NCBI GenBank assembly: GCA_032718475.1
Contig: JAUCBJ010001331.1
Span: forward strand, 1 to 56,367
Source of the DNA: Nemertoderma westbladi
Taxonomy: Eukaryota; Animalia; Xenacoelomorpha
DNA: 56,367 nt
Direction of reading: 5' to 3'
Part shown: piece after piece, positions 2,750-48,154 of the stretch
How the letters are laid out: every line of letters begins with the position of its first letter
Position numbering within the stretch: the stretch's first letter is position 1
Notes under the pieces: model-generated
Databases searched by the model: none
What the model saw: the letters and a program-made list of their open reading frames with translations, nothing else
What the model was told of the DNA's origin: nothing
Position numbers and translations under genes: made by a program

Positions 2750-3912
2750 TGTTCGCGCTTTTAGACCTTTAGCAGTTTAACCTGCCAAATTTAGGTGTCT
2801 TCTAGGTTATAAATCGACTTTAGCCTATAACAAGTATTTGATACACATAAAGTTACATTAGCCGAAGCCAGCCTATGCGCGATCATTCACCCACGGTTAA
2901 GGGAGACTGGATTCGGATGCTCTGAACTTATTGCAGTGTAGGCCTACTGTACTATTCGATTGATCGTTAATATATAATCTCTGACAAATATTATTCACTT
3001 TCGGGAAATATTAACAGTTCCTTTAGGACGTGGCGCTCTAAGTATGTAAACAGAGTTATGACTTACACTAAACACAACGGGATGGCTAATGATTCACGTA
3101 TAAAGCGCATTCTTTAGGAAATGCTTTGTTATCTATCACACTCATGCACAATACCGCACACTGCTGCACACTGATCTGCCGACCTTCACTAATTTTAATC
3201 ATATATAAGGAGAACAGCAACTGACACATGTAGGGTCTATGAAATAGCATTCAATTCACTCCAAAACCACTATAATGTGAGTCACAGTTGCTATATGTAA
3301 CCGGTCTCTCTAACCTTCAGTATATCAAGAAGGTTGGGGTTTTCTGATTATTTATCGATATTCTCCAAATATAACAACATATCCATCAAATGATAACACT
3401 TAATAACCGACAGTAAATAGCAGTAAAATAATGCGGTGAAAGGTATGTATAGTATGATATGGGCTGATAACAGTTATACGTTTCTATGATCAAAGCCGTT
3501 CTAATGTTTGGCTAAAGTCTGAAACACAGAATAATTCCACAGCCGATGTTCTGGGCTCAGGAAAAAAGGTAAACAAAGACCATAATGCATTGCGCGATTT
3601 CCCGGAGGCTTCTGTGCAAATAAAATGAAAATCGCTCTGATTGGTCGAGCCGAACAAAGAACAAAGAAAAGCTCTACGTGGACATATCAGCTGATAGATG
3701 TCGTCATCTGAACTACACTGTATCAAGAGTATTTTGGCGTATTGCGGCATAAAATCGCTAGTTATGTCCGCTAAAGTACACATACAGAAAAATGGCTTTT
3801 TATGTCCACTAAAAAACCTACACAGTAAGAAAACTGCTTTTTATGTCCGCTAAAACACCTACAGAGTACTTTGCGGGAAAAATGACTAGCTAGATCCGCA
3901 AAAGCCTTTACA
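2750..3912 (-). repeat. E1 3' LTR
   Basis: Direct repeat of 17934-19096 with about a dozen substitutions counted by eye; ends TGTTCGCG...GCCTTTACA. Confidence 0.97.
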
Positions 3913-3990: not shown

Positions 3991-5540
3991 TTAGTCTTTC
4001 TTGCGCGGACGGCGTTTACGCAGTTTTTTGAGGCTAGCAAGAGTCCTTTTCTCTTTGGGGCGAGCCACTTTACTAGGAGGGCTATAACTCCTGGGTGAAG
4101 GGTGCAATACAATTGCATCGAAGGTTTAGGATTACGGTCAGTGTATCCGCCGGTCGAGGTACCTGGTTGATCGATATCAACTTCAGTAGAGCGAGGTCTA
4201 ACGGCCTTCAGAGCGCGTTTTAGGACAGCAGCTCCTACTGGTCCCTGACGAGTCGTCTGAACGATAGCGGTAGGTGGACCGTGAGTAGTGAGAATTTCCT
4301 CGGTTTGATGATTCTTTTCAACTCGCGTTCTCGGGCTCTATAGGAATCGATATGCTTCTCCTTGAGCTGATTTTCTTCCGCTTGTCGTTGGAAGCATTCG
4401 TCTAAAACTCTTTTAGAGAGTAGGGTCACCCAAGTTCGATATCTTCTTAGAGATTCTGGATTTCCTGATCGAACTGAGATAAAACTAATTCGTTTACCGC
4501 TTGGACTTGCTGCGGCAATTTATGTTTCTCTAAACAATTGTAGGTTCCCTTTCTGATCTTTTGACGAATAGTGCCCAACGCATTTCGTACAACTCTCTCC
4601 TCCTCCTCGGTGACAGGTTGTATCAGGTTAAACCGGGACGATGATACAGTTGAATGGCGATATTAGATGTCCGCGTCCCAATCCGGCTAGGTAAGATGGG
4701 CAAATATTTAGGGAGCCCACAACCGGAGTGCCACCGACTAACTGCTCGGGTAACACTAGATCTTTGAACAGTGAGTACAGTTCGGGAGGATCTGTGATAC
4801 TATTAGGATCAAGAGTCTGAGGTCTAACTAGGGAATGAGGAGGTCTGACCGAGTATTCAGGAACTCTGATCATAGGTTTATTTAAGGATCGTTTGAATCG
4901 AACGAGTGTAGTTGATACATCAAACAAGTTTCGCTCGAAACTCCCGTAAATATAGCGAGTAGAACCGTGTTTAAAGCAACGTCTCCGCGGATGTTTATGT
5001 CTTTCCGTTTGTTGGTTGGGTCTTGGGCATTCATCGCAATAATACCAAAGACGCACGTCTTGTAGGGGAAACGCGGGTGATATTTATTCGGTTTTACAAT
5101 GTTTCTCTCAAGAATTCCAAATATACGTTGGAGTTACCGCGTTTATCAGGTTCTTTAACGTCTTCTCTTTCGAGTCGATTTCGAATAGAATTTTTGCATT
5201 CGATTTTCAGTTTATCGTTCCGACTCCGCTGGGTAGGATATTTAAATAGGGCCATTTCCCTTTCGGTGTCGACATCGTCCGTATCGTGTAAATCGATAGG
5301 ATGACCAGTAGTTAAGAAGTCCATATGCGTACCATTACGATGCGTATAGCGAGCAGTGAATTTTCAATAGTCCAATTCACGAGTGAGTTGCTCCTGGGAC
5401 ATTGGCGGTTCGATATAACAACCATAGTCCTCTGTTGTAGTTGGACTAGCGTCGCTGCGTATTAAGCTATCACCAAATGCTTGCAACGGTAGAGTATATC
5501 GCTCCCTGATACCAAGATCATCTTCTATCAACTCAGTCAT
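3991..5540 (-). pseudogene. E1 accessory ORF downstream of pol (unknown function), disrupted
   Basis: Starts MTELIEDDLG at 5540 as in E2. Pieces 5094-5324 and 4628-5056 align with E2 ORFs 23606-23905 and 22840-23661; piece 4235-4429 has no E2 counterpart because E2 is deleted there. Coding-like sequence continues through frameshifts to KKLRKRRPRKKD-stop at 3991. Premature stop near 5364 and a roughly 160-bp deletion near 5100. Confidence 0.75.
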
Positions 5541-7243
5541 AGCTGCTATATGAGTTTATCAATATTATAATGAGTTTATAATTAGGCTAGCGGGCGTCTC
5601 TGCCTACCCCTCACGGCCCCCGGACAGCGCAAGATCCTCAGCGCTGATGTACTTTCGCCGATGTGCCTATCGCCAACATAGTAGCTGCACAACGACAATA
5701 ATAACCAGCGTGAGTCACTCCACTGTCCGTCCCAAGGGCTAAGATTTACTTCAGGTTCTTACTGCAGAGTTAGGGCTACTTTCACAATTGCGACTCGCTA
5801 CTGTAAACACACTTTAGTAGTAACATTCACCTATAAACGCACAAATTCCACACAACTGTCACAAATCATTCGGGCCATTTGTCCGTTAGTCAAGTGCCTT
5901 CCAGAATGCCACGTTATTATAGTGTATCCTTGGATACTACTAGCAGTGTGCTATTTATTCCTTATGCTATTCAATGGGGCAAGCCTTTATTGTTCTTTTA
6001 ACTCACTTCTAATTCTAGCGTGGTTGTTGCCATGGTGACATTATGGAAAGCTAGCAGTAGAATTAGGGTAATTCTCATGCATACAGATCTGGGATGCTAT
6101 TTAATAGTAATTCTTTAATTGTGAATATTCCTCTTTATACATGATTTTGTGAATTTTATCGGCTATTGACTATATATTGGAGATTCTCGCACACTAATAT
6201 ACTTAATAGGGTGAATCTCCGCTCCCATGATCTATTAATTAATGGAATTTTGGGAATGTTATAAATTGCATAAAAATGACAATTTATCAAATTCATTAAA
6301 AGATATGAATTTAAATTTATTCCCGTAAATTTTATTATTTAATATTAAATAGACACAATTTTATTCCAGAGCATGTCTGGGGACTAGGATCCTGAATTCT
6401 AGGAAATTTGTCCTTTTAAGAGTATCGGTAAGTGCTACGATATCTTAATCGACTAGAATGTTAAAGGATCTAAATTTGAACAGATTTTGATTTATAGATT
6501 TTCTAGAGTTAACTTGTAAGTATTTACTCTATTGTATTTGTTTGACAGATTTTATAAATATTAATAGTTAATATTTAAGATGGGCACCGGTTTATTCCAG
6601 AACTTTTCTGGGGACGTTAACCACTGATTCTAGAATTTTGTCTTTCAAGTATATCGGTGGGTGCCGCGATATCTTAATCGACTAGAATTACAGATGGTCA
6701 AAGGGTTTAACAGATTTATTTTGCGTTTTATGCTACTGTTAAAAGGACATCACGCTACTATATGTATTATTTAATATACGGTATGAGAGCAATATTGCAG
6801 AAGCAATGTCAGTGAGAAGAGGCAAGTCGTTTCCAAGGTCTACCCAGAGCTTGGTTTAGCCGAGACACGCGGATCTGAATTTTGCATTCCTAATACTCTA
6901 CTTACCAATAATACTTGAATATAGTAGGAGCTTTATTGTACTTTAATAAGTACGGACATTTCATCTTACTGTAGTCACGTATTTATAATGTAATACTGAC
7001 AGTAAGGAAAGAGAAAAGAATTATCTCTCGCCGTTGCACTAAATATATAATATAATATAAGTAAGTAAGTAATAAACACTAATATATATTGCACTAATCT
7101 ACTAAATAATCGCTAAAATAACATTCTACTAAATAAAATTAAAGAAAACGATTATAATAAAATTACATAATAATACATACCTAAATATAAAATAATAAAA
7201 ACAAATATAAAATAATATAGTCACACACCCACTCCAGACGCTG

Positions 7244-17933: not shown

Positions 17934-19096
17934 TGTTCGCACTTTTAGACCTTTAGCAGTTTAACCTGCCAAATTTAGGTGTCTTCTAGGTTATAAATCG
18001 ACTTTAGCCTATAACAAGTATTTGATACACATAAAGTTACATTAGCCGAAGCCAGCCTATGTGCGATCATTCACCCACAGTTAAGGGAGACTGGATTCGG
18101 ATGCTCTGACCTTATTGCGGTGTAGGCCTACTGTACTATTCGATTGATCGTTAATATATAATCTCTGACAAATAGTATTCACTTTCGGGAAATATTAACA
18201 GTTCCTTTAGGACGTGGCGCTCTAAGTATGTAAACAGAGTTATGACTTACACTAAACACAACGGGATGGCTAATGATTCACGTATAAAGCGCATTCTTTA
18301 GGAAATGCTTTGTTATCTATCACACTCATGCACAATACCGCACACAGCTGCACACTGATCTGCCGACCTTCACTAATTTTAATCATATATAAGGAGAACA
18401 GCAACTGACACATGTAGGGTCTATGAAATAGCATTCAATTCACTCCAAAACCACTATAATGTGAGTCACAATTGCTATATGTAACCGGTCTCTCTAACCT
18501 TCAATATATCAAGAAGATTGGGGTTTTCTGATTATTTATCGATATTCTCCAAATATAACAACATATCCATCAAATGATAACACTTAATAACCGACAGTAA
18601 ATAGCAGTAAAATAATGCGGTGAAAGGTATGTATAGTATGATATGGGCTGATAACAGTTATACGTTTCTATGATCAAAGCCGTTCTAATGTTTGGCTAAA
18701 GTCTGAAACACAGAATAATTCCACAGCCGATGTTCTGGGCTCAGGAAAAAAGGTAAACAAAGACCATAATGCATTGCGCGATTTCCCGGAGGCTTCTGTG
18801 CAAATAAAATGAAAATCGCTCTGATTGGTCGAGCCGAACAAAGAACAAAAAAAAGCTCTACGTGGACATATCAGCTGATAGATGTCGTCATCTGAACTAC
18901 ACTGTATCAAGAGTATTTTGGCATATTGCGGCATAAAATCGCTAGTTATGTCCGCTAAAGTACACATACAGAAAAATGGCTTTTTATGTCCACTAAAACA
19001 CCTACACAGTAAGAAAACTGCTTTTTATGTCCGCTAAAACACCTACAGAGTACTTTGCGGGAAAAATGACTAGCTAGATCCGCAAAAGCCTTTACA
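17934..19096 (-). repeat. E1 5' LTR
   Basis: 1163-bp direct repeat of 2750-3912, followed by TSD TTCTG. Confidence 0.97.
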
Positions 19097-21694: not shown

Positions 21695-22876
21695 TGTTCG
21701 CGCTTTCAGACCTTTGGCAGTTTAACCCGCCAAATTAGGATGTCTGTTAGATAATAAATCACTTTAGCCTATGACAAATATTTGATTCACTACACTAGTC
21801 GAAACCAATCTGTGCGCGATCATTCACCCGCTGGATATACCCGGGAGATTGGGTTCGACGGCTTAATCTTATTGCTATGTAAGCTTAATGTATTATTCGA
21901 CTGACAGTATTATATAATCTCTGACAATATTATTCACCTTCGGGGAATATTAACAGTTCCTTTAGGACGTGGCGCTCTATCTATATAAACAGAGTTATGA
22001 CTTAAACTACTCACAACGATATGGCTTAGTTATAATTCACATATATGGCGCATTCTTTAGGAAATGCTTCGTTATCAGTCTCACTCATACACAATGCTGC
22101 ACAATACTGCACACTGATCTGCCGATCTTCACTGATTTTAGTTACATATAAAAGGAACACGGACTGACTCATGTAGGGTCTATCAAATAACATTAGATTC
22201 ACTTCAAACCACTTTAACATAAGTCACAATCGTTATATATAACCTTCCTCTCTTACCTTCGGTATATCAAGAATATTGGGTTTTCGGGGTTATTTATCGT
22301 TATTCCAAATATAATAATTCATCAACCAAATTATGAAGTACCGACAGTAAATAGCAGTATAACAATATAAGGTATGCACAATGTTACACAATATGCAGTG
22401 TCAGTGTGTTGAGACAATCAGGTTTGTTGTGATAACGGATATATGTCCTTATAATTAAGCCTACTAGTGTACGGCTAAAACAGAAAAGCACAAAATACTT
22501 CCAAGCCGTTCTTTCCTTGGCTCAGGACTGAATGTAAACACTGCACATAGGCATTGCGTCATTTCTCGGAAATTTTCTGTACAAGGAGCCACAAAAATGC
22601 TCTGATTGGCTGACTGAACTGAGAGACGCCGTAGAACAAAGGAAATCAACACGTATGAATGTCAGCTGTTAACCGTAGTCATAGTAACTACTGTTCAAGA
22701 GTAGCTATCACCCTTTTGCGTCACGAATTGCCATAGAATCATCAAATATGCCTTTCACAGTACACATACGGAGGAAATAGGTCTTAGATCCTCTAAAAAC
22801 ACCGATACAGCAATAATACGGTCTCTTACACCTATTAAATCAACTACAGAGTATTTTAATGTAAAAGATAATAAAA
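21695..22876 (-). repeat. E2 3' LTR, missing its first 31 bp (sense orientation)
   Basis: Matches 35923-37104; the segment equivalent to 37105-37135 is absent and the LTR is fused directly to accessory-ORF sequence. Confidence 0.95.
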
Positions 22877-23905
22877 GCTAGTCCAGCAAGGTAAGGTTGG
22901 CGAATATCTAACGAACCCACTACCGGAGTGCCGCCAATCAACTGTTCAGGTAACACCAGATCTTTGAACAGTGAGTATAGCTCGGGAGGATCCGTAATAC
23001 TATTAGGATCGAGAGTTTGAGGTAGCACTTGGGAATGAGGAGGTCTGACCGAGTATTCCGGAACTCTGATCATGGGTTTGTTCAATGATCGTTTAAGGCG
23101 CACGACCGTAGGTGACACGTCGAAAAGGTTACGCTCGAAACTCCCATAAGTATATCGCGTAAAACTGTGTTTAGCGCAACGTCTCCGCAGATGTTTATGC
23201 CTTTCGATCTTCTGGTTAGGTCTAGGGCATTCGTCACAGTAATACCAAAGACGTATGTCTTGAAGGGGAAACGCGGGTGATCGCTCTCCAGTTTTACAAT
23301 ATTCCTCCATCTGTTCGAAGCTATCTGGAACGACAGGTAGCGGTCGATCAGCGGTAAGATACATCATCGTAAAATAGAGCCGTTTGAGTTCCATCATAGG
23401 ATCTGGATGTATACCTTGAGGATATCGAGTTTCGAGGTTTTGTTGACTGGCAACATTGAGATAGGTCTCTCTTAAGAACTCTAGATAATCGTTGAAACCG
23501 TTACGTTTATCAGGTTCTTCAACGTCTTCTCTTTCTAGTTTGTTTCGAATAGAGTTCTCGTGTTCTATTCTCGATTTATCGTTTCGACTCCGCTGGGTAT
23601 GATATTTAAATAAAACCATTTCCCTTTTCGGTATCAACATCGTCAGTGTCGTGTAAATCAATAGGATGACCAGTGGTCAAGAAGTCCATATATGTACCAT
23701 TACGATGCGTATAGCGAGCAGTGAATTTTCTATAGTCCAATTCACGCGTAAGCTGTTCCTGGGACATTGGCAGTTCGATATAACGACCATCGTCTTCCGT
23801 AGTAGTTGGATCAACGTCGCCGCGTATCAAGCTATCGACAAACGCTTGTAAAGGTAGAGTATATCTCTCCCTGATACCAAGATCATCTTCTATTAATTCA
23901 GTCAT
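22877..23905 (-). pseudogene. E2 accessory ORF (unknown function), 1-bp frameshift and C-terminal truncation
   Basis: ORFs 23606-23905 and 22840-23661 join if one T is removed from the run at 23625-23628 (E1 has one fewer and reads DVDTEREMALF). Contains CDEC-x9-HKH-x4-CAKH. Confidence 0.8.
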
Positions 23906-25559
23906 ATCTGCTATACGAGTTCACCAATATTATAATGAGTTTATATATATATTAGGCGAGCGGGCGTCGCTGCCTACTTCTCCCGTGCCCCCGGACAGTG
24001 TGATTCTCAGCGCCGATGTACCGCTGTCGCTGTACTTTCGCCAACGACGTAGCCGTACAACGACAACGATAACCGGCACAAGTCACTACACTGTCCGTCC
24101 CAAAGGCTTAGATGTACTTCAGGTTTCCTTGGAGAGTTAGGTTACTTTCACGATTGCGACTAGCTACTGTAAACACACTTTAGCAGTAACATTCATCTAT
24201 AAACTCACAAATACCACACAACTGGTCACAAATACGCACATTCGGGCCATTTGTCCGTTAGTCAATGCCTTCCAGAATGTCACTGTATTTATTATGTATC
24301 CTTGGATACTAGTAGTGCGCTATTTATTCCCTATGCTTTTCAATGGGACAAGCTTTCTATTGTTCTTTTAACTCAATTCTAATTCTAGCGTGGTTGTTGC
24401 TATGGTGACATTATGCAAAGCTAGCGGTAGAATTAGGGTAATTCCAATGCATACAGATCTGGGATGTTATTTAATAGTATTCTTTAATAGTCAATGTTCT
24501 GTTTTATATATGACTTTATGAATTTTATCGGCTATTGACTATGTTTGGGAGACTTTCGCACACTCATATGCATAATAAGATAAATCTCCGCTCCCTTGAT
24601 CTATTAATTAATGGAATTTTGGGAATGTTATAAATTGCGTAAAAATGGCAATTTATTAAATTCATTAAAAGGCATGAATTTAAATTTATTCCCTAAAATT
24701 TTATTATTTGATAATTAACTGGACATATTTTGATTCCAGAACATGTCTGGGGACACAAGATCCTTAATTCTATGAAAATTGTCCTTTTAAGAATATCGGT
24801 AAATGCTACGATATCTTAATTGACTAGAATTGTTGAAGGATCTGAATTTTACAGATTTGATTTATTAGATTTGCAAATATTAAATAATTAATATTTGAGA
24901 TGGGCACCGATTTATTCCAGAACTTGTCTGGGGACGTTAACCACTGATTCTAAAATTTGTCTTTCAAGTATATCGGTGGGTGCCGCGATATCTTAATCGA
25001 CTAGAATTGCAGATGGTCAAAGGGTTTAACAGATTTATTTTGCGTTATACGCTACTGTTAAAGGGACATCATGCTACTATATGTATTATTTAATATACGG
25101 TATGAGAGCAATATCGCACGAAGCAATGTCAGTGTGAAGAGGCAAGTCGTTTCCAAGGTCTACCCAGAGCTTGGTTTAGCCGAGACACGAGGATCTGAAC
25201 TTTGCATTCCTAATACTCTGCCTACCAATAATACCTGAATATAGTAGTGGCTTTATTGTACTTTAATAAGTACGGACATTTCATCTTACTGTAGTTACGT
25301 ATTGATAATGTAATACGGACAGTAAGGAAAGAGAAAAAGAATTATTTCTCGCCGTCGCACTAAATATATAATATACGTAATTAAACAATAAACGCGAATA
25401 TATTGCACTAATCTACTAAATAATCTCTAAAATAACATGTTACTAAATAAAATTAAATAAAACGATTAAAATAAAATTACATAATAATACATACATAAAT
25501 ATAAAAATAAAACAAATACAAATATAAAATAATATGGTCACACACCCACTCCAGCCATT

Positions 25560-28500
25560 TTAAGTTGGGGAGTCCCTAGATGTTTGTTGGATTAGGGAGG
25601 TGGTCGTGGGAAGAGTATCTTGTCTCCCATAGTTTCCGGAGAGTTCTCTGTCTCTTTCCAGTAAACATAAACGTCCCACCGGGCGATTGAGCTGTTGGGT
25701 CTCAAAGACTATCCCTGGTTTCTTAAAGTTACGCCGCATGACGACGAGTTCTACTGATCGCACCAAACCATCGCTCGAGATATGAGTCTCGATGATACGT
25801 CCTGTTTGCCATCGCTTACGTGGGAGATCGGGGTCCACAATAAGCACCATGTCTCCAGCGCTGACGTTTTCTTGCTGCGCAAACCACTTAGTTCGAAGTT
25901 GTAAAGTGGGCAGGTAATGTTTCTCGAAATGGTCAGCGAAACGACGGGATAGCAACTGCATAAGTTGCCAGGTTCGACGGCAGTACTCGTCTCCGTCTGT
26001 GATCTCCGATCGTGGGAGCATGGCTACGGGTTTTTTCAGTAGAAAGTGCGCGGGTGTTAGCGCTTCCAGGGAATCAGGACTTGAAGAGACTGGCATAAGC
26101 GGTCTTTCATTGAGATAGGCGGCGATTTCCTCCATTAACGTCCGCAATAGTTCGTCGGTGAGATAAGCGCGACAAGGCACAATAAAGTGGAACGCAGTCT
26201 TCACGCTCCTAATCAATCTCTCCCAACTTCCTCCCCACCAAGGGGCGTCGGCGGCGTTGAAGGTCCAGCTAGACGCTGTTATCTTTAGCTGATCGTCCAC
26301 CTGTCTTTTGTTCCAGTCTTTTACGTAAGCTTGAATTTCGTTGTTGGCGCCAATGAAGTTCGTTCCCTTATCCGATCTCATCGTGTTACTGGTTCCGAAA
26401 CGAGCAATCTGTCGTCGTAAACTCAACACGAAGCTGTTGGTGGATAGATCGTTTACCATATCGAGATGGATAGCTCTACAAGTCATACAAACGAAGATGA
26501 CACACCATCTCTTGACTATAGTCCGGGCACGATATACTTCAATAGGGCCAAATAAATCCACACCGGTATTAGTAAAGGGTGGTTCATAAAAGCTTACTCT
26601 TTCCCTAGGTAATTCTGCCTCTCGCTGTGTCAAAGGCCTACTGAATGCTTTCCTACAGGGTATGCAGTTCCTAAGAACTTGGTTCAGAGCCCTACGGGGT
26701 TTATAAAAATAGTAGCGAGTTCGAATTTCGCTCAGAACTCGTTCTCTTCCAGCATGATACAGTTTGCTATGAACATCTACAATCATCTTGATTTGTATAT
26801 CAAGATTTCTAATGAGTATGGGAAACTTAGTGTCAAAGGATAATGGGGCGTTGGTAAGCCTGCCTCCAACACGTATTAACCCATCTATCATTGTACTAGA
26901 GAAGCGATCCCTTAAGCGCATCTGCGGATTTCTTAACAACAGGAAATACTTATCGGAATCCTCACAGCATTGTAGGAGTCTCAGCATCTGTTTGTTGGTT
27001 TCATCATGCTCCTGGTAACTGATCTTCTCCTTTAGAAACCTGTCGGATATCTTGTATTTAGGAAGATCTTTAACAACATGGACTCGTGCAGATGTTGATG
27101 GAGCATCATCACTATTGGTCTTTGTCCCGGAGTAACGATGATGAAAACATCGTTTTAAATAGGTGACGGCTTTACAGAGCCGATTCCAGGAGCTGTAGTG
27201 ACGTATCGCTCTCTGCAAGAGAGGTGAGAGTCCTTGCGCGATATCTGGTATTCCAGATTTCCAATCCTTGTCACGGATTTCCAAGACTTCTTTAGTCGTG
27301 GCGGTGGGTTTCTGATCCAAAGCATCCTCTCCGGAAGTAAATAATACAGATAGATCAACCGCAGGTTTAAACAACTTCGATTTACTCGCTCGAGTTTTGG
27401 GTTTAACTTTCTCCGCTCCCTTGGCCTGTCTGATTTCTGCTGTTGTGAGATGGGGAGGCCATTCTTCTTCTTCTCGGTAGAGAAAGTCGGGTCCACCTAA
27501 CCATTCGGGAGTATTTACCAATTCCTTTGGAGTCGCTCCTCGGGAAGCGATGTCTGCTGGATTAATCGTTCCGGGGCAATGTCTCCATTGGTCCATCGTC
27601 GTGCGACTAAGTATGATGGCTACTCTGTTGGTAACGAAGACGCTGAACTGACAGACTTCATTGGTTATATACTCTAACACGAGTAAAGCGTCGGTCCAAT
27701 AGACAGTTTTCTCTAATGGGTAGTCAATCTGTTCTGTTACATTCCGGCCGATGGCTGTAGCGTATAGAGCCGCTTTTAACTCCGCTCGAGGAACTTTCAA
27801 CTTGTTGTTGATTAATGCCTTAGAAGTAACCAAGGCGACTTTGATTCCATCCAGAGTTTCCACTCTGAGATAGGCTACTATACCTATTCCCATATCGCTG
27901 GCGTCTCCAAACACATGGAGTTGATAGGAATACGTAGGGAGAACATGACCAAAATAGGAACGGGAAATTATAAAATCCTCGATAGCCGGCAGAGAATCTT
28001 CCCATTTCATCCACTTCTTTAATAATTCTCCCTTAAGTGGATCGTCCCATGAGTGGTTTTCAAGCCACATTTGTTGTACCAAACTACGAGCAATCAATAT
28101 AACTGGGCTAATAAATCCCAATGGATCGAAATAAGTGCTCAGTATACTTAAGCAAATCCGTTTGGTTCGAACTGGATTATCTCGCTGTTTTAGCTGGAAA
28201 AACAGAATATCTCGCTCTGTGTCCCATTTCAAGCCGAGTGTCTTGGTTTCTGGCAGATCATCTTTGATCAAATCTAGATCTTTCGCCCCTCGATCTTCCG
28301 CAGGGATCGACTCCAGAAACTCACGGGAGTTGCTGGTGAATTTCGTTAATCGAAACCCACCTCTTTTTAAGCACTCTACCGTTCCTTTAGCGACCTCAAT
28401 GGCTTCCTCAACTGATGGGAGGGACTTCAGATTGTCGTCCATGTATATGTCTCTCTTGATGTTATCGATCACTTCCTTAGAGAAGGCCTCTCGGTTGTCC

Positions 28501-31500
28501 TCTGCAGTGGTACGCACTACCGAACAGGCGTTGGAAGGGCTTGAGATTATCCCAAAGGCCTGGATGGTCATCCAGTACTCCACCGGTTTCTGGTTGAGGT
28601 CTCCTTCGGGCCACCACAGAAATCGTAGACTATCTCGATCCCTATCCAACACTTTGACTTGTAAGAACATGCCTTCTATATCGGAGGCGAAAGCAATCGA
28701 ATATTGTCTCAATCTTAAAAGAATTCCCAACAAAGATTGAAGCAAGTTGGGTCCAGGTAACAATTCAGAGTTAAGGGATTGACCCATGTAAAGAGCGGAG
28801 CCATCAAACACTACTCTCACTTCATGTGGTTTACCGGGTTTAGGAACGTAATGGTGAGTTAAGTAATACGTTCTTTCAGTCGCAGGTGTTTCTTCCGGTA
28901 CTCTCTCCGCGTATCCTTTACTAATAAATTTCTCCAGCTGTGTTTGATACATTGCTTTAGCTGAAGAATTAGCCGTAAGGCGTCGATGGAGTTGCGCGAT
29001 TCTTTTTTCCGCCAAGGGTTTGTTATTGATGAACTTCGGTTCTCTCTTGCGGAAAGGTAGACCGACTTCATACCTACCTTGATCTTTGAGGAAACGCGTA
29101 GTGGTTTCTTGGATCTGCTTGGCCCTTTTCTCTTCCACCGACAAGGCTTTATCGTAGGAATTGGGCTCTACCGCCTCTTGCGTAAAGAATCGTACGGCAT
29201 GTTCATCTCGAGTCTTGGCATTGCAACGCTCAATAACGTCATTTAACTCGTCGTTATAAGCTTCTCGTTCAGATGGATAGAGAAGTTGACATAAGTTCAC
29301 TTGGGTTTGCCAAGCCTCGTTTTCCTTAAGGAGATCGATGGTATTCTCCTCATCAAAAAGCTGGTGAACGTCGTCGTTATCTGAGGAGTATGGAGTTCCC
29401 TCAGTTAAGTTGTCTCCCTCACTGGTATCATCTTCCCATTCACTCACCTGGCAGACGTGCTCTTGCGGTAGTCTTTCTCTGAGTGTTCTACGGGAAGGGC
29501 CAGTAAAGTACCAACCTACTCTAGTTCTTACCGCATAGGTCTGTAGTGGCTGCGGTTGAGCAGGCCGTTTCTCTAATGTCTCCAGCGCCTCGTGCGCGTT
29601 TTGGCCGATGAGTATTTGCACTCCAGGATAATCAGTCTGGAATCGAGGTATGTTAAGATGTTGGATGCTCTCATCCTCGTCCCAATTATAAAGGTCTGCT
29701 TGAGTAGTAGCGAAGTTCTTTATAGCCACCATTTTCACTGACCTTATGCTATTTTCTCCTAGTTCGTCCTGGGGGGTGGACAACGCTCCTACATAATAAT
29801 CTGCTGTTATTGTAGATTTCCAAACTTGCATAATGCCGGACATGTTGAGCTTAGTTTGGAACTTGGGTTGTCCAGCGAAGATGTCTTCGGCTAGTTCTTT
29901 ATCAATGAATGTTCCTGTGCTGCCGGAGTCCAGGAGGGCGTTGACTATATAGCTCCTTTGAGGTCCATGGACCCGTAACTGGACTACAGGAAATTCTCGG
30001 ATTCCTACATTGGAAGTTGGTGCTTTCCACGATAGTTGTCGGTCAGAAGTAGTTAGAATGAAGTCGCTGTCTGTATCTTTTTCATATGTGAGTGCTCGAT
30101 ACACTGCGGCATTTATCATGTAACAGGATTCGTTTTCGTCGGAGAACTCGTCCGTATAGAATCCTTCCATCTCAGATTGATCAGTGTCGTTCACATCACT
30201 GAATTGGACATGTAGTTCGGAATCACTTACCTGATTAGGACTATTTCGATCGAATTCAGCGTGCAACAAGATATGATGTTTCGCACCACACTTTGCACAC
30301 CTTATGTCTGAGTAACAGGTTCGCCGTTGATGTCCTTGTCTGAGGCAGTTATAACACAACCGCTTGTCCCACATGACTTCACGCCTCTCAGTTAATGATT
30401 TCTTTAGAAATTCATCACACCTATTCAAATGGTGGGTCCCGTCACACAGCGCACATTTCGGTTTGATGTTACTTACCTTATTTTGAGTCACATTGTGTAC
30501 ACTTGCCTTTTCTTCGGGCTTTCTCACCGGAATTCTCTTGGGAGACGTGGGAGGAGTTTTTCTTACCTGTTCTCTCCTGTCATTTGCTCGAGACTTGAAT
30601 TTACTTACCTGATCTTTAGGCATTTTATTGACATAATAAGATCTATCGGTGTCTTTCCCGCTATCTTCTCCTTGAGAAGTCTGGCTTTCGCCGTCGTCTG
30701 TATAACACACTGGTGTTACCTTTCTCCTAGAGACGGGTTTTTCACTTACCTTGTTTTCCGGTGTCTTCTCTCTGGACAGTTTCAGGAGCTGTAATTTCAC
30801 TTCTCCATCTAGGAATGACATGAGATCAGCCATGGTAGGATCTCGTCGTTGTTGTTCCATCATATATAACACTTTCTTATCCCAGCGTGTACCTACCCCA
30901 CCTTTCGGTAAAGTAGAAGCCACAGCTCCAATGACCATAGAACTTTGGTATTCATGAGACTTACCTAACCAATCTAATTGTCTACAGATCTCTTGAATCT
31001 CATCGGAAAACTCTATTATCCCGCTGCTGATGAACTTTCTGGGCGCTACTAATTTTGCATATAAATACTTAGCGATATTATTCCTATTACCATACCTGAT
31101 GTTTAGTGTGTCCCAAACTTGTCTTAATCCGTCTGGATGTCCAATAAACTTTAACGCCATTAACTTGGGAGATCCTTCCAAGCACTCGATGAGGTATCTA
31201 AGTTTTTCTCCATTAGATAGTACAGAGTTCTGTATGTTATCTTTGTAATATTCATTAAAAGGTAACCATTTCATCTCATCTCCATTGAACTTGACGATCT
31301 CTCCCACCTTTACCGCTTGCCGGGCTTTGGTTCTAGCCATTTGACGCGTAAAACTTTCTTGGGCCATCGTGTTATTTAATATCGAGTTATCGGTATATAA
31401 ATTTCTCGGATTATGATCAGTTCTATATGGAATATCATTATCAACAGGTCTATAATTACCCTTAATAGGGTTCACTATAGGAGTTTCTACTTCGCTAGCA

Positions 31501-33656
31501 GTATAGATGCGTGTAGGCTCCACACCTTGCGCATGAGATACTTCAGACCTAACAGGTTGACACATTGTTACAGGGGGTGGTGGTATACCCTTTTGTAAAT
31601 TTACTAATTTATCGCGTTCTAGCGCGATATTTTGCTGCACTTCTTGCAACTCTAGCCTACTTTCCCTTACTGAGCCCTTTAACTGTTGAACAGTCCCTTC
31701 TAACTCTCGGACCTGTTGAGAGGAGCGTGCTTGATTCTCCTCCATCTTTCCGAGGAGAATGTCCATCCCCTGCCGTCTCTCGTCCACCCAATCAACCGCC
31801 GAAACGGGATCCGCCAACGTCGTAGCGGACGGACGAGGGACAACGGGCGACAAATCAGGAATATTTCGCTCGGGGTCCAGGACCTGAACTGTCTCCTGGG
31901 CAGTTCTACTGGGCACAGGTAGCTTAGTGCTATGCAGAGGGAATTTAGAGGTAGCTTCAGGGAGCACAGGTGTGTCTATCACCGAAGGGGTGATTTCAAA
32001 AACAGGCCTAATTATTTCAGGCTCATCTACTATAGTAGGGAGTCTTTCTATTTTAATTATTTGGTCTGTGGGCTCTGTACTACCTAAGTTGGTGTTATTT
32101 AGTTGCCTTCTAACAGCTGGAGGCAAATCAGGCAATTTCTGACGGTGGAATGTTCTTTTACGTCTACTTAGACGAGATCTATTTCCTTTGCCTTCAGTAT
32201 CGGTGGTATCGCCTTCCTCAGATGATGTATATCCCTGTCTTTTGGGAGTAGATCGATTCATCATCTGCATATTACTAGCTGTTAACTGTTTATTTAGGCA
32301 GTCTTGATTCTCCTGAATGCTTTCCAATTCTAATTGGGTGGTTTCTTCAATCGCTCTCCGTTCGGCTTCTGCCACTGCCTCTGCGGCCTTTCTTTCTGCC
32401 GCTGCTTCTGCCGCTGCCTCTGCCGCTGCCGCCTTTCTTTCCGCTTCGGCCGATGCCACTGCTGCTGCTACTGCCGCTGCCTTTCTGTCTTCTATACGTT
32501 TTTTCTTTACTTGTTCTTCTTGGACTCGTGTCAGGCGGAGTTGTTCATCAAATTTGGCCTGATTTGCAGCCCTCATTTCCACATCGATGGCATCCAACAC
32601 AAGCTTGGTTCCTTCACTATTAGGGCTAAGTCCCTCTAACCTTCTCCTCAACTCGTCATCACCTAAAAAACGTTGATAGTCTGACAGATAGATGTCAATG
32701 GCATCCCTCTTATGCGGTTTCTCTGCCGTCGCTTCACTTTCCACTTGGGAAAAAGTAGCGTCTGTTGATTCTCCATGGGTTGAGCGCTCCTCCAGCTGAG
32801 CTTTCCACTGAGCTGTTCCTTGAACCTGGAGACTCACCCTTTGAAACCAGGTCTTTACGGCAACTTGCAACGACGTGTCTTGCCTTCGTTTAGAAGCCTC
32901 TTCAAAGGCCGATAATATTAGCCTGATTCGTAGAATTCTTTCTCTCACTTGATAAAGCAGTTGTCCCTGCTCTTGAGGTCCTTGTGGTTGTTGAAACAGT
33001 TGTCCTTTTACTCGCTCCATAGAGCTGAAGAATCCTTGTGCGTATCCGGCTGCGGACCTCTTCCATACAGCTGGATCGATGGTTTCCCTGGCTACTCCCA
33101 TCCGGTGTATGTCTTCCCAGGCAGCTTCTGATAAATCAAACGGGAGTCCGGGTCCGGGGAAGTTCCATTGCGACTCAACCATGGACTTCAGTTCTTCCCT
33201 TGTATACCCAGCATAACTATCTCTCGTTGAGCGCTGACTTCTCGCCCAATCGATCTGGTGTTCTTCCACCGCGATCAATAACCTAGTGAGTACGGCTGCA
33301 GGAAGGATGAGAAGGGGATCTGAATAAGCCTCATCCGTCATCCTTGCTCCGCGTTCGGGTGTCAGTTCTACCGTATCTTCACTACTGGAGCTGTCGGGCC
33401 GCTGAGAAATAAGTTCTTGGCTCGCGGGTTGTTGCTGTTCCGCTGCTTCTTGGTTCCGCTTGACCTGAGCTCGAGTGCCTATGATAGACCTACGATGTTG
33501 GACCAGCCTAGGTTCTGTTATTACTACAGGAGGGATGACTTTCCTCACAGTGGGGGGTGAACTGAACTTACGACTAGACGGTTCTACGCCTCTATCTGAG
33601 TCGCAGATAGTTACATCTAATAAACTGTCTGACAGGTTCTGCTTAGTATCAGACAT
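25560..33656 (-). CDS. BEL/Pao Gag-Pol polyprotein (2698 aa): long N-terminal extension, capsid-like region, three Cys/His knuckles, aspartic protease, RT, RNase H, integrase
   Basis: KFNGDEMKW..F capsid-region motif; CALCDGTHHLNRC / CYNCLRQGHQRRTC / CAKCGAKHHILLH triple knuckle typical of BEL/Pao; ALLDSGS; SDIEGMFLQV and YMDD; HVFGDAS, VPRAEL, YWTD, NPADIASRG; H-x4-H...CIPC, GVDLFGP, SDKGTNF, WERLIRSVK. Confidence 0.98.
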   Translation of the reverse strand: MSDTKQNLSDSLLDVTICDSDRGVEPSSRKFSSPPTVRKVIPPVVITEPRLVQHRRSIIGTRAQVKRNQEAAEQQQPASQELISQRPDSSSSEDTVELTPERGARMTDEAYSDPLLILPAAVLTRLLIAVEEHQIDWARSQRSTRDSYAGYTREELKSMVESQWNFPGPGLPFDLSEAAWEDIHRMGVARETIDPAVWKRSAAGYAQGFFSSMERVKGQLFQQPQGPQEQGQLLYQVRERILRIRLILSAFEEASKRRQDTSLQVAVKTWFQRVSLQVQGTAQWKAQLEERSTHGESTDATFSQVESEATAEKPHKRDAIDIYLSDYQRFLGDDELRRRLEGLSPNSEGTKLVLDAIDVEMRAANQAKFDEQLRLTRVQEEQVKKKRIEDRKAAAVAAAVASAEAERKAAAAEAAAEAAAERKAAEAVAEAERRAIEETTQLELESIQENQDCLNKQLTASNMQMMNRSTPKRQGYTSSEEGDTTDTEGKGNRSRLSRRKRTFHRQKLPDLPPAVRRQLNNTNLGSTEPTDQIIKIERLPTIVDEPEIIRPVFEITPSVIDTPVLPEATSKFPLHSTKLPVPSRTAQETVQVLDPERNIPDLSPVVPRPSATTLADPVSAVDWVDERRQGMDILLGKMEENQARSSQQVRELEGTVQQLKGSVRESRLELQEVQQNIALERDKLVNLQKGIPPPPVTMCQPVRSEVSHAQGVEPTRIYTASEVETPIVNPIKGNYRPVDNDIPYRTDHNPRNLYTDNSILNNTMAQESFTRQMARTKARQAVKVGEIVKFNGDEMKWLPFNEYYKDNIQNSVLSNGEKLRYLIECLEGSPKLMALKFIGHPDGLRQVWDTLNIRYGNRNNIAKYLYAKLVAPRKFISSGIIEFSDEIQEICRQLDWLGKSHEYQSSMVIGAVASTLPKGGVGTRWDKKVLYMMEQQRRDPTMADLMSFLDGEVKLQLLKLSREKTPENKVSEKPVSRRKVTPVCYTDDGESQTSQGEDSGKDTDRSYYVNKMPKDQVSKFKSRANDRREQVRKTPPTSPKRIPVRKPEEKASVHNVTQNKVSNIKPKCALCDGTHHLNRCDEFLKKSLTERREVMWDKRLCYNCLRQGHQRRTCYSDIRCAKCGAKHHILLHAEFDRNSPNQVSDSELHVQFSDVNDTDQSEMEGFYTDEFSDENESCYMINAAVYRALTYEKDTDSDFILTTSDRQLSWKAPTSNVGIREFPVVQLRVHGPQRSYIVNALLDSGSTGTFIDKELAEDIFAGQPKFQTKLNMSGIMQVWKSTITADYYVGALSTPQDELGENSIRSVKMVAIKNFATTQADLYNWDEDESIQHLNIPRFQTDYPGVQILIGQNAHEALETLEKRPAQPQPLQTYAVRTRVGWYFTGPSRRTLRERLPQEHVCQVSEWEDDTSEGDNLTEGTPYSSDNDDVHQLFDEENTIDLLKENEAWQTQVNLCQLLYPSEREAYNDELNDVIERCNAKTRDEHAVRFFTQEAVEPNSYDKALSVEEKRAKQIQETTTRFLKDQGRYEVGLPFRKREPKFINNKPLAEKRIAQLHRRLTANSSAKAMYQTQLEKFISKGYAERVPEETPATERTYYLTHHYVPKPGKPHEVRVVFDGSALYMGQSLNSELLPGPNLLQSLLGILLRLRQYSIAFASDIEGMFLQVKVLDRDRDSLRFLWWPEGDLNQKPVEYWMTIQAFGIISSPSNACSVVRTTAEDNREAFSKEVIDNIKRDIYMDDNLKSLPSVEEAIEVAKGTVECLKRGGFRLTKFTSNSREFLESIPAEDRGAKDLDLIKDDLPETKTLGLKWDTERDILFFQLKQRDNPVRTKRICLSILSTYFDPLGFISPVILIARSLVQQMWLENHSWDDPLKGELLKKWMKWEDSLPAIEDFIISRSYFGHVLPTYSYQLHVFGDASDMGIGIVAYLRVETLDGIKVALVTSKALINNKLKVPRAELKAALYATAIGRNVTEQIDYPLEKTVYWTDALLVLEYITNEVCQFSVFVTNRVAIILSRTTMDQWRHCPGTINPADIASRGATPKELVNTPEWLGGPDFLYREEEEWPPHLTTAEIRQAKGAEKVKPKTRASKSKLFKPAVDLSVLFTSGEDALDQKPTATTKEVLEIRDKDWKSGIPDIAQGLSPLLQRAIRHYSSWNRLCKAVTYLKRCFHHRYSGTKTNSDDAPSTSARVHVVKDLPKYKISDRFLKEKISYQEHDETNKQMLRLLQCCEDSDKYFLLLRNPQMRLRDRFSSTMIDGLIRVGGRLTNAPLSFDTKFPILIRNLDIQIKMIVDVHSKLYHAGRERVLSEIRTRYYFYKPRRALNQVLRNCIPCRKAFSRPLTQREAELPRERVSFYEPPFTNTGVDLFGPIEVYRARTIVKRWCVIFVCMTCRAIHLDMVNDLSTNSFVLSLRRQIARFGTSNTMRSDKGTNFIGANNEIQAYVKDWNKRQVDDQLKITASSWTFNAADAPWWGGSWERLIRSVKTAFHFIVPCRAYLTDELLRTLMEEIAAYLNERPLMPVSSSPDSLEALTPAHFLLKKPVAMLPRSEITDGDEYCRRTWQLMQLLSRRFADHFEKHYLPTLQLRTKWFAQQENVSAGDMVLIVDPDLPRKRWQTGRIIETHISSDGLVRSVELVVMRRNFKKPGIVFETQQLNRPVGRLCLLERDRELSGNYGRQDTLPTTTSLIQQTSRDSPT

Positions 33657-34980
33657 GTTTATGTATACAGTTGAATGTCTACTGCTGTATTACAGTATGA
33701 GCAAGTCTAGTAACTCAGTATTAACTGCTAGCCTAGTAATTAATTACCGATACTGCTACTCAGTGTAGTAGGATATATATATATTATATTAGAATACCGG
33801 TATGCTTATAGTATATATAATTATATAAGTATTATTACAGACTAGGTTTATCACAGAATACCGGTATAATTTTAGCACAAATATATATAAATATATAATA
33901 GGCCTATCGGGAATACCGGTATACAGCTTACAGTTTATAGTATATATAATTCTGGACTAGAATTACTTACAGGTACCGGTATAATTTCAGCCGAAACTTA
34001 TAGAAATAAAGATAATAGGCCTATCGTAAATACCGATATATCAATTATTTTAAAAATAACTGAATTTCTGAATTTCAAGGGTTACTTGGTTACTTTACTT
34101 ACTTTATTACCGTTATTGGAGCAGTAATCCAACTGATATTGAGACCTAATGGTTGTATGGTAGGCCTACTATTTATAAATCGTTAGATTTGATTTATAAT
34201 ATATATATACCCGTTTTAATGGGTTTTGTCGATGTTTGAAATAAATGTTATTATTTCTGGGGAGTAATCACTACACAAAGCGGTGCGCTTTCAGTGAAGT
34301 GTTACTTATAGGACACTAAAACAAATAATACTAATTTACCTAAGTTACTTAATACTACAAATTACGTACAATTCGGGTTGAGATTACAATCTCTAAATAA
34401 ACACAAAATTTTACAAAAACACAAAATACGAATTTTTAGGGTAATTTTACAAGAAGTCTACAAACCAGCCTAACAAAGGGTTAGAATCTAGTTATTACAA
34501 CGGACAGGGTACTGCGGTATTTGAAAATAATACGCGGTAGTAAATACACTGCGTTGTCCAGATAGGAAAATACCACCGCCTGACGACCTATAGCTGTATC
34601 GCTATAGGTTCTACGTTATGTATCACGGAGTGTTCCTACCTAGAAGTTAATAGAGCTAATCGAATGTGCCTATCAACCACTTTACAACACAAATATAATG
34701 CCTACCCCAATTACTTTCGGAAAGCACTGTACACTAAACCCTAAATTAGGTACGAGTACTTGTATAACAGATAATCAGTAGTTAAAAATACTTGAACAGC
34801 TAAAAGAACCACGGCATCTGCTGGAGTGACCGATGCACAAAATCACCAGTCTTTACCTACGCCAAGCAGCCCGTGTAGTACCGGGGTTAATTTAACTATA
34901 GCGGTATGTATAACAAACACAATTATTGCAGGAACAAACTTGGGGAATGAATGTTGCGAATAATCGCATAAACTCTGAAT

Positions 34981-35922: not shown

Positions 35923-37135
35923 TGTTCGCGCTTTCAGACCTTTGGCAGTTTAACCCGCCAAATTAGGATGTCTGTTAGATAATAAATCACTTTAGCCTAT
36001 GACAAATATTTGATTCACTACACTAGTCGAAACCAATCTGTGCGCGATCATTCACCCGCTGGATATACCCGGGAGATTGGGTTCGACGGCTTAATCTTAT
36101 TGCTATGTAAGCTTAATGTATTATTCGACTGACAGTATTATATAATCTCTGACAATATTATTCACCTTCGGGGAATATTAACAGTTCCTTTAGGACGTGG
36201 CGCTCTATCTATATAAACAGAGTTATGACTTAAACTACTCACAACGATATGGCTTAGTTATAATTCACATATATGGCGCATTCTTTAGGAAATGCTTCGT
36301 TATCAGTCTCACTCATACACAATGCTGCACAATACTGCACACTGATCTGCCGATCTTCACTGATTTTAGTTACATATAAAAGGAACACGGACTGACTCAT
36401 GTAGGGTCTATCAAATAACATTAGATTCACTTCAAACCACTTTAACATAAGTCACAATCGTTATATATAACCTTCCTCTCTTACCTTCGGTATATCAAGA
36501 ATATTGGGTTTTCGGGGTTATTTATCGTTATTCCAAATATAATAATTCATCAACCAAATTATGAAGTACCGACAGTAAATAGCAGTATAACAATATAAGG
36601 TATGCACAATGTTACACAATATGCAGTGTCAGTGTGTTGAGACAATCAGGTTTGTTGTGATAACGGATATATGTCCTTATAATTAAGCCTACTAGTGTAC
36701 GGCTAAAACAGAAAAGCACAAAATACTTCCAAGCCGTTCTTTCCTTGGCTCAGGACTGAATGTAAACACTGCACATAGGCATTGCGTCATTTCTCGGAAA
36801 TTTTCTGTACAAGGAGCCACAAAAATGCTCTGATTGGCTGACTGAACTGAGAGACGCCGTAGAACAAAGGAAATCAACACCTATGAATGTCAGCTGTTAA
36901 CCGTAGTCATAGTAACTACTGTTCAAGAGTAGCTATCACCCTTTTGCGTCACGAATTGCCATAGAATCATCAAATATGCCTTTCACAGTACACATACGGA
37001 GGAAATAGGTCTTAGATCCTCTAAAAACACCGATACAGCAATAATACGGTCTCTTACACCTATTAAATCAACTACAGAGTATTTTAATGTAAAAGATAAT
37101 AAAAATAACGGGGCAATTCAGCAAAGGCTTTTACA
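35923..37135 (-). repeat. E2 5' LTR (1213 bp)
   Basis: TG...CA termini, repeat of 21695-22876, followed by TSD ATCTT. Confidence 0.97.
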
Positions 37136-46955: not shown

Positions 46956-48154
46956 TGTAAAAGCTTTTGTGGGATAACTGATTCGTTTGCCTGGCTGGCC
47001 AGTTCCCCCCCGGTCGCTAGAATACTCTAAAAGGGATCTATAGCTAAAATGGTGCAAGCTACCAGCTTATTGGCTGATGTGCTGTACGAAGGTATCTGGG
47101 TTCTGTTCGATCGGCCAACCAGCTTAGGGAGGTCGCCTCAGCCCTGCTGTCCGTATCGGCCAATAGAATTTGAGTGGGCGTTGATTTTGACCTATCCCAG
47201 AGCTACTGAACTGAATTTCCTATCTGTATGCTCATCCTCTGTGTTGGACGGGAGCTTCGGGGAATAAGGGTAGTTGGTATCCTCGTATAGTCATGTAGTC
47301 ATATGATTCTTCTTATGATTCTGTTGTTGTGTTCCCATTTTTCGCCATAACACCGGCTTTTGGGAAGAACTCTAGTGAAACTGCTTAAATTATAGAAGGT
47401 ATAACTGTTACCTAACTAACCAATCCCACCTAACTAATCTCACTTAATTTAACTGCACTAATCATATTGTTTGTACTGTTATTTACCGTCAGTTATTAAT
47501 TGTATAGATTTGTTGATGAAATATTGTCCTTTGGAGAATACGGATAAATCACCCAAATTTCCCAATTTTCTTGATACACTACAGGTTAGAGAGAAGGGTT
47601 ATACATAACAATTGCGATTTATATCAATGTGGTGTGTATTGAATCTAATGTTATTTAGCAGAGACTACATGAGTCAATTGCTGTTCTCTTTATGTGTGAT
47701 CAAATTTACTGACGGTCGGCAGAATAGTGTGCATGATTGTGATTGGTAACAAAGCATTTCCTAAAGAATGCGCCTTATACTTTAATTATAAGCATTATCG
47801 TTGCGTTTAGTATAAGTCCTAGCTCTGTTTAAATAGATAGAGCGCCACGTCCTAAAGGAACTGTTAATATTTCCCGAAAGCTAATAATATCTGTCAGAAA
47901 TTAATTATTAACGATCAATCGAATAATACAGTAGGTTTACACTGCAACCTTACACTGCAATAATAAAATTTAAGCATCCGAATTCAGCCTCCCGGGTGTA
48001 TCCATCGGGTGAATGATCGCGCATGGGCTGGCTTCGGCTAATGTTTTTGTTTATTAGCATAAAATATTGTCGTATGCTAAAGGTGTTTTAATTAACTAAA
48101 AGACATATAAATTTTGGCAGGTTAAACTGCCGAAGGTCTTCAAAAGCGCGAACA
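46956..48154 (+). repeat. E3 5' LTR (1199 bp)
   Basis: Termini and the 3' roughly 700 bp match the reverse complement of the E1/E2 LTRs; partner LTR not in window; predicted TSD ATCTC. Confidence 0.88.

Follow-up and report, generated by a model that had tools for sequence, protein, structure and literature searches.

The third gene of BEL/Pao retrotransposons is described as env-like, with a function stated as unknown (PMC8742986). An env gene is present in few of these elements (PMC3118150, available in part), and Env-like ORFs have been noted for Tas and Cer7 (PMC554778), as well as for roo and mosquito BEL elements (PMC13524379), according to the accessible portions of the two papers. Like the ORF reported here, those of Tas, Cer7, roo and mosquito BEL belong to the same superfamily and lie on the sense strand between pol and the 3' LTR. 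As far as these sources go, they code for Env-like fusogens, which in the mosquito elements are chuvirus-like glycoproteins. The initial annotation of our locus regarded the known 3' ORFs of BEL/Pao elements as Env-like, in agreement with PMC8742986 and with the available parts of PMC554778 and PMC13524379. The text of PMC12460157 contains neither BEL nor Pao. In the literature, no report was found of a BEL/Pao element whose extra ORF is other than Env-like. An accessory ORF that Bowen and McDonald reportedly described in Cer7 in 1999 is a possible precedent.

Cer1 of C. elegans is a Ty3/gypsy element. Its CERV protein, compared here by description only, is similar to the protein discussed below in being non-Env, encoded by an animal LTR element, about 517 residues long and without homologue outside its group, and in having a Cys-rich loop and a basic signal. 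No homology between the two was detected. CERV differs in that it is made from a spliced mRNA, shares sequence with Gag, has a loop of the C4 type and exports RNA (PMC10309623, in part). An internal promoter and the Tas protein are known from foamy viruses (PMC7828637, in part), and both these viruses and foamy-like fish elements carry an accessory ORF just before the 3' LTR, as our elements do. The internal promoter is known there and only proposed here; moreover, foamy viruses are Retroviridae with an env gene, and no sequence similarity to our ORF was found. Orphan ORFs have been described in a zebrafish foamy-like element (PMC2774666), and accessory ORFs in large elements (PMC6431247), each paper being available in part. 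VANC proteins of VANDAL transposons are also encoded by the element and act in trans. They de-silence their own elements via tandem repeats (PMC5735166, in part), and the targets proposed for the protein described here likewise lie in repeat-bearing non-coding parts. In contrast to our elements, VANDALs are plant DNA transposons, and VANC and the product of our ORF have no detected similarity.

In plants, the eORFs of SIRE, Retand (TRP28) and Ogre, and in rotifers the ORF3s, are found in a long region between pol and the LTR, as is the ORF reported here, and are often orphans (PMC6317226, PMC11963269, PMC5408684, in the accessible portions). A regulatory role has been proposed for TRP28 of Retand (PMC6317226, PMC11963269, likewise). 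In contrast to our elements, their hosts are of copia or gypsy lineages, the Retand ORF is antisense, and the rotifer ORF3s are recognisable enzymes (DEDDy, GDSL) or membrane proteins. Since non-Env extra ORFs are known in the form of CERV, the rotifer ORF3s and the plant eORFs, the ORF described here is of a known kind.

The window analysed here, 56,367 nt of contig JAUCBJ010001331.1 from Nemertoderma westbladi, is a cluster of LTR retrotransposons. Two of them, E1 and E2, both lie on the minus strand and carry the extra gene, henceforth the third ORF (Table 1). Their target duplications are 5 nt long, and the purine tract is present in E1 and deleted in E2. The two LTRs of E1 diverge by 1.1% and those of E2 by 0.1%, so both elements are young and E2 is very young. 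The gag-pol frame of E2 codes for an N-terminal extension, DUF1759, CCHC knuckles, protease, reverse transcriptase (YMDD), Pao peptidase A17, integrase and DUF5641; the gag-pol of E1 is broken into at least five frames. Pfam searches matched PF05380 (E 2e-35), PF18701 (E 1e-19) and PF03564 (E 5e-12) in the domain order of the Pao type (protease, RT, RNase H, integrase), and also the integrase zinc domain. Among the 120 homologues listed for the RT-RNase H region, all contain PF05380, identities are 41-46%, and none exceeds 46%. Because of the Pao-type Pol domains and the presence of PF05380 in all listed homologues, the elements are BEL/Pao elements, of a lineage that is without a close relative in the protein collection searched.

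Table 1. Coordinates of the features discussed (positions in the window; E1, E2 and E3 are the three BEL/Pao copies)
Feature	Position	Strand	Remarks
E1, whole element	19096-2750	-	16,347 nt; TG...CA LTRs, target duplication CAGAA
E1 5' LTR	17934..19096	-	1163 nt
E1 putative self-primer	18651..18664	-	14-nt perfect complement of 17933-17920 after the 5' LTR; LTR position 433
E1 putative internal promoter	5575..5710	-	patch with 57% GC, 11 CpG; TATAAA at 5580
E1 third ORF, whole span	3991..5540	-	four in-frame stops, five frame breaks
E1 Cys/His cluster	4967..5038	-	same pattern as in E2
E1 basic tail KKLRKRRPRKKD	3994..4029	-	followed by the stop at 3993; putative nuclear localisation signal
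E1 3' LTR	2750..3912	-	purine tract directly before
E2, whole element	37135-21695	-	15,441 nt; TG...CA LTRs, target duplication AAGAT
E2 5' LTR	35923..37135	-	1213 nt, TG...CA, whole
E2 putative self-primer	36660..36671	-	12-nt perfect complement of 35922-35911 after the 5' LTR; LTR position 465
E2 gag-pol	25560..33689	-	single open frame, 2709 codons, first ATG 33656
E2 non-coding spacer from pol to third ORF	23906..25559	-	holds a 137-nt internal repeat
E2 putative internal promoter	23940..24080	-	130-nt patch, 60% GC, 17 CpG; TATAAA at 23945
E2 third ORF, 5' piece	23630..23905	-	92 codons from the ATG, acidic; dN/dS 0.086 against E1
E2 third ORF, second piece	22877..23625	-	249 open codons; dN/dS in shared blocks 0.24 and 0.12
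E2 164-nt open coding segment	23304..23467	-	absent from E1; length variant within the family
E2 Cys/His cluster, CxxC-x9-HxH-x4-CxxH	23167..23238	-	putative metal site
E2 3' LTR	21695..22876	-	without its first 31 nt and without polypurine tract
E3 putative self-primer	47401..47411	+	11-nt perfect complement of 48155-48165 after the 5' LTR; LTR position 445

Typical BEL/Pao elements (Belpaoviridae) have a primer site for tRNA-Arg or tRNA-Gly and a length of 4.2-10 kb according to the ICTV profile (PMC8742986). The elements described here are 15.4-16.3 kb long, and a tRNA primer site of the TGG type is absent, as judged by eye, from all three BEL/Pao copies of the window. We file them as atypical BEL/Pao elements, because membership rests on Pol and the length and primer traits are taken as descriptive. 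The family is highly repeated, with 15,205 contigs of run X1 matching one 2-kb stretch. The third copy, E3 (46957-55428, plus strand), is 80-82% like E1 and E2; it is truncated in the reverse transcriptase near 55430, so that its 3' half and third ORF are outside the window. The N-terminal extension of gag-pol comprises about 800 residues before DUF1759 (33656-31300 in E2, 15421-13000 in E1, 50407-52900 in E3), consists of Ala/Glu/Arg-rich, coiled-coil-like repeats of varying number, matches no Pfam family above the cut-off, and is under selection (dN/dS 0.14-0.24). The long 5' leaders contain tandem duplications (16195-17270 in E1, 34981-35553 in E2, 48519-49105 in E3). That of E1, with units of 537 nt that are 99% alike, is recent or an assembly artefact; in E2 and E3, the units are about 290 nt long and 87-89% alike.

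In Tf1/Sushi, Tcn1 and TAR, the primer site pairs over 10 nt or more with a stretch inside the 5' LTR, a mode of self-priming described in gypsy and copia lineages (PMC6317226, in its available parts). The same source asks for a complementarity to the 5' LTR of at least 10 nt that starts 0-5 nt after this LTR, and such a complementarity is present in E1, E2 and E3. Among 1910 inner positions used as controls, pairings of 14, 11 and 11 nt were found at 0, 3 and 9 positions in E1, E2 and E3, respectively, and the three pairings differ from each other by compensatory changes. It is therefore likely, on the evidence of these complementarities, that the BEL/Pao elements of this family are primed in a Tf1-like manner. 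No report of self-priming in BEL/Pao elements was found in the literature. If confirmed, the self-primer would extend tRNA-independent priming to a third superfamily of LTR elements. With respect to the transcription start, the closest TATA-like words of E2 and E3 precede the primer by less than 15 nt, a distance too short for a classic start there.

The remainder of the window is also rich in repeats. A Ty3/gypsy-type element (37964-42353, plus strand) has identical LTRs of 175 nt and three overlapping frames, which code for gag, pro-RT-RH (with DUF7047) and integrase. Downstream of E3, the stretch 55600-56367 resembles by eye the first ORF of a LINE element. A 1.3-kb unit is present twice (19643-20955 and 44186-45506, 96% alike), with four tandem repeats of 162-165 nt in each copy, and is likely another non-autonomous element. 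E1 is inserted in a palindromic, repeat-rich stretch, the halves of which (2223-2749 and 19097-19308) flank it, and which is likely a foldback or MITE-type element.

The third ORF is a real gene under purifying selection, about as strong as that on gag-pol. A homologous sense ORF about 1.7 kb after pol had been noted in E1 and E2, and this was borne out: it starts with MTELIEDDLG in both copies (ATG at 23905 in E2 and at 5540 in E1, minus strand), 1655 nt behind the pol stop in E2 and 1704 nt in E1. Selection was measured over three gap-free blocks of the E1/E2 comparison (91, 40 and 140 codons). The 271 pooled codons give a dS of 0.618, a dN of 0.075 and a dN/dS of 0.121 (95% interval 0.075-0.181; Fisher p 2e-27), not the value near 1 that would have spoken against a gene. 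The single blocks have values of 0.086, 0.237 and 0.116, and five gag-pol segments range from 0.072 to 0.235. In the two long blocks, third positions account for 22 of 33 and 49 of 77 differences, and the other two sense frames have dN/dS values of 1.1-4.8 and 5-11 stops; in the 40-codon block, all three sense frames stay below 0.45 and are not told apart. From this comparison of frames, coding on the opposite strand or in a shifted frame was rejected. Indels point the same way: the spacer between pol and the third ORF has 27 per 1630 aligned nt, of which 25 would break a frame, and the third-ORF blocks have 3 per 860 nt, one of them frame-breaking (the 164-nt gap between blocks is left out of this count).

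Both copies of the third ORF are broken. In E2, there is a frameshift near 23628, within a homopolymer run. As no matching gap is listed among the contigs on E1 (12 of 15 entries), the frameshift is likely private to E2 or an assembly error. Position 22877, which the initial annotation took for the end of the ORF, is not a stop. Instead, owing to a deletion, the ORF runs straight into the 3' LTR, at position 32 of the latter, and both the purine tract and the LTR start are missing on this side, whereas the 5' LTR is whole. In contigs of runs X3 and X4, the LTR start of the E2 type is where it is normally found. Since reverse transcription copies U3 from one end of the element to the other, the loss took place after insertion, or else it is an assembly error.

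In E1, the ORF is interrupted by in-frame stops at 5366, 5086, 4449 and 4428, and by frame breaks near 5103, 4653, 4410, 4292 and 4119. At 5366 and 4428, most of the contig depth departs from E1 (71% and 97% in run X1); the stops at 5086 and 4449 are not among the variants listed (40 of 400 and 40 of 150). A small gap relative to E1 is found at 4292 and 4119 in 12 and 26 contigs of X1 and in 11 and 18 contigs of X2, which corresponds to about one third and one seventh of the X1 depth, and further contigs end loose at 4119. The form of E1 at these two positions is likely private to it. The site near 5103 is a different case. The 164-nt segment that E2 has there is also missing from two X4 contigs that cross the E1 site (depth 9 and 4) and from one X5 contig, which has just 26 nt on one side. 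Because the X4 contigs cross the site without it, the difference is a length variant of the family and not a lesion private to E1. An intron was considered and rejected, since the segment lacks GT...AG ends and is open in frame. From ATG to stop, the ORF of E1 measures 1550 nt, or about 516 codons, and the E2 type would have about 570. The initial annotation expected an ancestral protein of roughly 550-600 residues; by these spans, its size is about 520-570 residues.

Of the two copies, only E1 has the C-terminal half of the ORF, and 6036 contigs of X1 match the stretch 3900-4720 that covers it. Run X6 had no contig on this stretch, although such blanks can be false. Among the differences listed for the contigs, silent third-position changes make up 9 of 10 in one frame between 4290 and 4121 (1 and 0 in the others), and 3 of 5 in one frame between 4402 and 4294 (1 and 1 in the others). 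Between 4652 and 4415, the frames are not told apart (9, 8 and 7 of 25), and no difference is listed for 4118-3991. The basic tail KKLRKRRPRKKD is supported because the gap at 4119 links the frame of the silent changes to the frame that stops at 3993. We thus infer, in support of the initial annotation, which had taken a basic tail resembling a nuclear localisation signal for the end of the E1 protein, that KKLRKRRPRKKD is its true C-terminus. An alternative open C-terminal frame ends at 3942 and has a maximal hydropathy of 1.28, which is not membrane-like.

The predicted protein begins with an acidic part, followed by a part predicted with low confidence to be helical, the Cys/His cluster and a well-kept, Pro-containing stretch; its second half consists of a charged, helical-looking part, an S/T/P-rich linker and the basic tail. 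The cluster C-x2-C-x9-H-x-H-x4-C-x2-H, said to be retained in both copies, was found in each of them, and these are exactly the two matches to the pattern in the six frames of the window. Around it, 119 of 142 columns are invariant between E1 and E2, and the seven Cys and His residues are unchanged. At this overall conservation, their invariance has a chance of about three in ten and is not significant alone. Zinc binding by the protein is predicted solely from the motif.

In contrast to the Env-like fusogens of other BEL/Pao elements, the protein is hydrophilic and has a basic tail. The earlier statement that it lacks a signal peptide and a transmembrane helix agrees with the 19-residue hydropathy, which does not exceed 1.12 in any of the eight third-ORF pieces. 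The first 92 residues are acidic (D+E 0.23, maximal hydropathy 0.46) and contain no N-terminal signal peptide. The last pieces (maximal hydropathy 0.37 and -0.35; S+T+P 0.29-0.32, K+R 0.37) contain no C-terminal membrane anchor, and there are 0-1 N-glycosylation sequons per piece. The third ORF is not Env-like, since signal peptides and membrane helices are absent from all of its pieces. That it could still be a degenerate or highly diverged Env is suggested by its location at the place that env occupies in Tas, Cer7 and roo (PMC554778, PMC13524379, in the available parts). However, all eight pieces lack a signal peptide, a membrane anchor and a Cys-rich glycosylated ectodomain, even the alternative C-terminal frame reaches a hydropathy of just 1.28, and neither fusogen families nor solved chains were matched, so that we consider this origin extremely improbable.

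The third-ORF protein is a member of no protein family against which its sequence was tested. A search of 5.8 billion proteins with the 278-residue E2 frame and a two-row alignment came back blank (only longer proteins are covered, and blanks are weak evidence), and an HMMER scan of 1.84 billion representatives gave 0 matches at E 0.001. Pfam gave no match above the cut-off and three weak ones on two of the eight pieces; for the motif-bearing pieces, it gave 0 families at E up to 10, zinc-finger profiles included. PHROGs gave two matches at E 0.09, and nothing at a useful score. There was no match at a useful score to PDB sequences for the third-ORF pieces, and no sequence similarity to viral fusogens. 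In the ESM Atlas, the best match was at 0.77 in one search, and another search found none. Metagenome and viral contigs contained no related locus for either third-ORF or integrase queries, and no clear match to an Env or a host gene was found in any search. For the pieces of the C-terminal half that are present in E1 only, the searches covered Pfam, the window, the 120 BEL polyproteins and, with one piece, PHROGs. Two runs of structure prediction had a pLDDT of 37 each, too poor for a fold to be read. Since the libraries are thin for animal transposon proteins, blank searches do not prove the absence of relatives. The third ORF has no similarity to the Gag proteins of the window or to 120 BEL polyproteins, and an origin by duplication of the Gag extension was rejected after comparison within the window.

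These searches bear on two alternatives. The protein may be a structural or replication helper that is packed in particles, such as a chaperone of self-priming or a further protein of the Gag or nucleocapsid type. One E1 piece scored with the Arc capsid C-lobe (E 0.036, below the cut-off), the basic tail and the Cys/His cluster could bind RNA, and the family has an unusual primer site. However, the Arc score is one of three weak matches among eight queries, the motif differs from a CCHC knuckle, and the protein is unlike the Gags of the window and the 120 BEL polyproteins. A helper of this kind appears quite improbable. Alternatively, the protein could serve counter-defence or modulate the host in another way, either as an inhibitor or degrader of a piRNA or chromatin factor, or as a captured, diverged enzyme. 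Cys/His clusters also act as adaptor modules, and fast-evolving animal proteins are hard to recognise by sequence searches. Moreover, captured non-Env ORF3s are common, to judge from the accessible portions of PMC5408684 and PMC6317226. Against this stand the absence of any Pfam, PHROGs or PDB match at a useful score for any piece, and the low dN/dS, which does not point to an arms race over the 271 codons that were compared. We regard such a role as unlikely.

The spacer upstream of the third ORF is of interest as a possible site of control. Between E1 (5541-7243) and E2, it differs by 9.5%, and by 6.3% in the first 640 nt, with many small indels; third codon positions differ by 22-34% between the elements, and those of pol by 22%. 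A divergence of 9.5%, compared to 22% at third positions of pol, is as expected of cis-acting targets. Alternatively, the lower divergence could be due to recombination between subfamilies or to the gap-rich alignment. In both copies, a CpG-rich patch of 130 nt with 57-60% GC precedes a TATAAA that lies 40 nt upstream of the ATG of the third ORF; the rest of the spacer has 32-33% GC and about 3 CpG per 130 nt. Polymerase II promoters are laid out in this way, with a GC- and CpG-rich patch and a TATA word, and this layout suggests an internal promoter for the third ORF. TATAAA alone is a weak signal, because it is common in AT-rich DNA (five in the spacer of E1, two in that of E2). Strong RNA structure shared by both spacers was rejected on the basis of window z scores: no common structure was found in 11 windows each, the lowest z scores being -2.4 in E2 and -3.8 and -3.0 in E1, and the best window of E1 scores -0.7 in E2. 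No Rfam family and no tRNA gene was matched within the window.

The spacer also contains, in both copies, an acceptor-like AG with a branch-like word about 260 nt upstream of the ATG (near 24167 in E2 and 5803 in E1, found by eye). A strict acceptor scan of the 300 nt before the ATG listed none, and no strong splice donor is common to all three leaders, which share one modest site, at offset 955-994. The AG could indicate that the third ORF is expressed from a spliced RNA and that its product, like CERV or Rev, exports the unspliced 15-kb genomic RNA, perhaps by binding the spacer. CERV, as described in the available text of PMC10309623, has 517 residues, a candidate nuclear localisation signal, a leucine zipper and a Cys-rich part that may be a zinc finger. 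The conservation of the AG, the fact that in E2 no ATG intervenes before the ORF starts, and the constraint on the spacer would all suit an export factor. However, E1 does have an ATG at 5679 in this interval, the leaders lack a strong common donor, and the spacers have neither a common structure nor an Rfam match. RNA export appears rather unlikely, though it is the foremost of the alternatives.

The reading that we favour, without holding it to be probable, is that the third ORF encodes a putative nuclear regulator that acts in trans and activates or de-silences transcription of the family. The initial annotation, which had proposed a nuclear zinc-binding regulator, is supported in part: the selected, non-Env extra ORF is real, and its zinc-binding, nuclear and regulatory properties are predicted. 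The internal promoter, which would require neither splicing nor the LTR, would make the regulator first, while the LTR is still off, and this would suit a factor that, like the foamy virus Tas, has to be present ahead of LTR activity. The acidic N-terminal part would resemble an activation domain; the Cys/His cluster and the best-kept stretch after it may bind nucleic acid or a partner; the charged helical part could mediate oligomerisation, and the basic tail nuclear import. The predicted product would be a soluble, zinc-binding nuclear protein that acts in trans on the copies of the family, with likely targets in U3, or else in the leader repeats and the constrained spacer. Neither a homologue nor a confident fold links the protein to DNA binding. 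Other observations also weaken the case for a regulator. The conservation of the seven Cys and His residues is no better than that of the surrounding residues explains. The anatomy of the protein (about 517 residues, Cys-rich loop, basic signal) also fits CERV, an RNA exporter (PMC10309623, in part). Finally, the acceptor-like AG upstream of the ORF fits splicing equally well.

Taken together, the features of the locus may describe a 'complex', self-priming BEL/Pao element of 16 kb, in which an orphan zinc-binding nuclear regulator with its own internal promoter would have taken the place of env and would switch on or de-silence the many copies. As a whole, this picture is putative and doubtful. 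If it is true, Tas and VANC would have a counterpart in an animal retrotransposon, one whose zinc-binding fold would be new. Extra ORFs of unclear role are common in LTR elements, which limits the weight of a further one. It is an open question how animal retrotransposons reach very high copy numbers despite silencing, and regulators encoded by the elements have been shown in few cases, namely CERV and, in plants, VANC. The third ORF is a testable candidate for such a regulator in a heavily amplified family, and its product may have a zinc-binding fold of a new type. The presence of an orphan non-Env gene under strong selection in the position of env indicates that this family, too, has evolved accessory genes.
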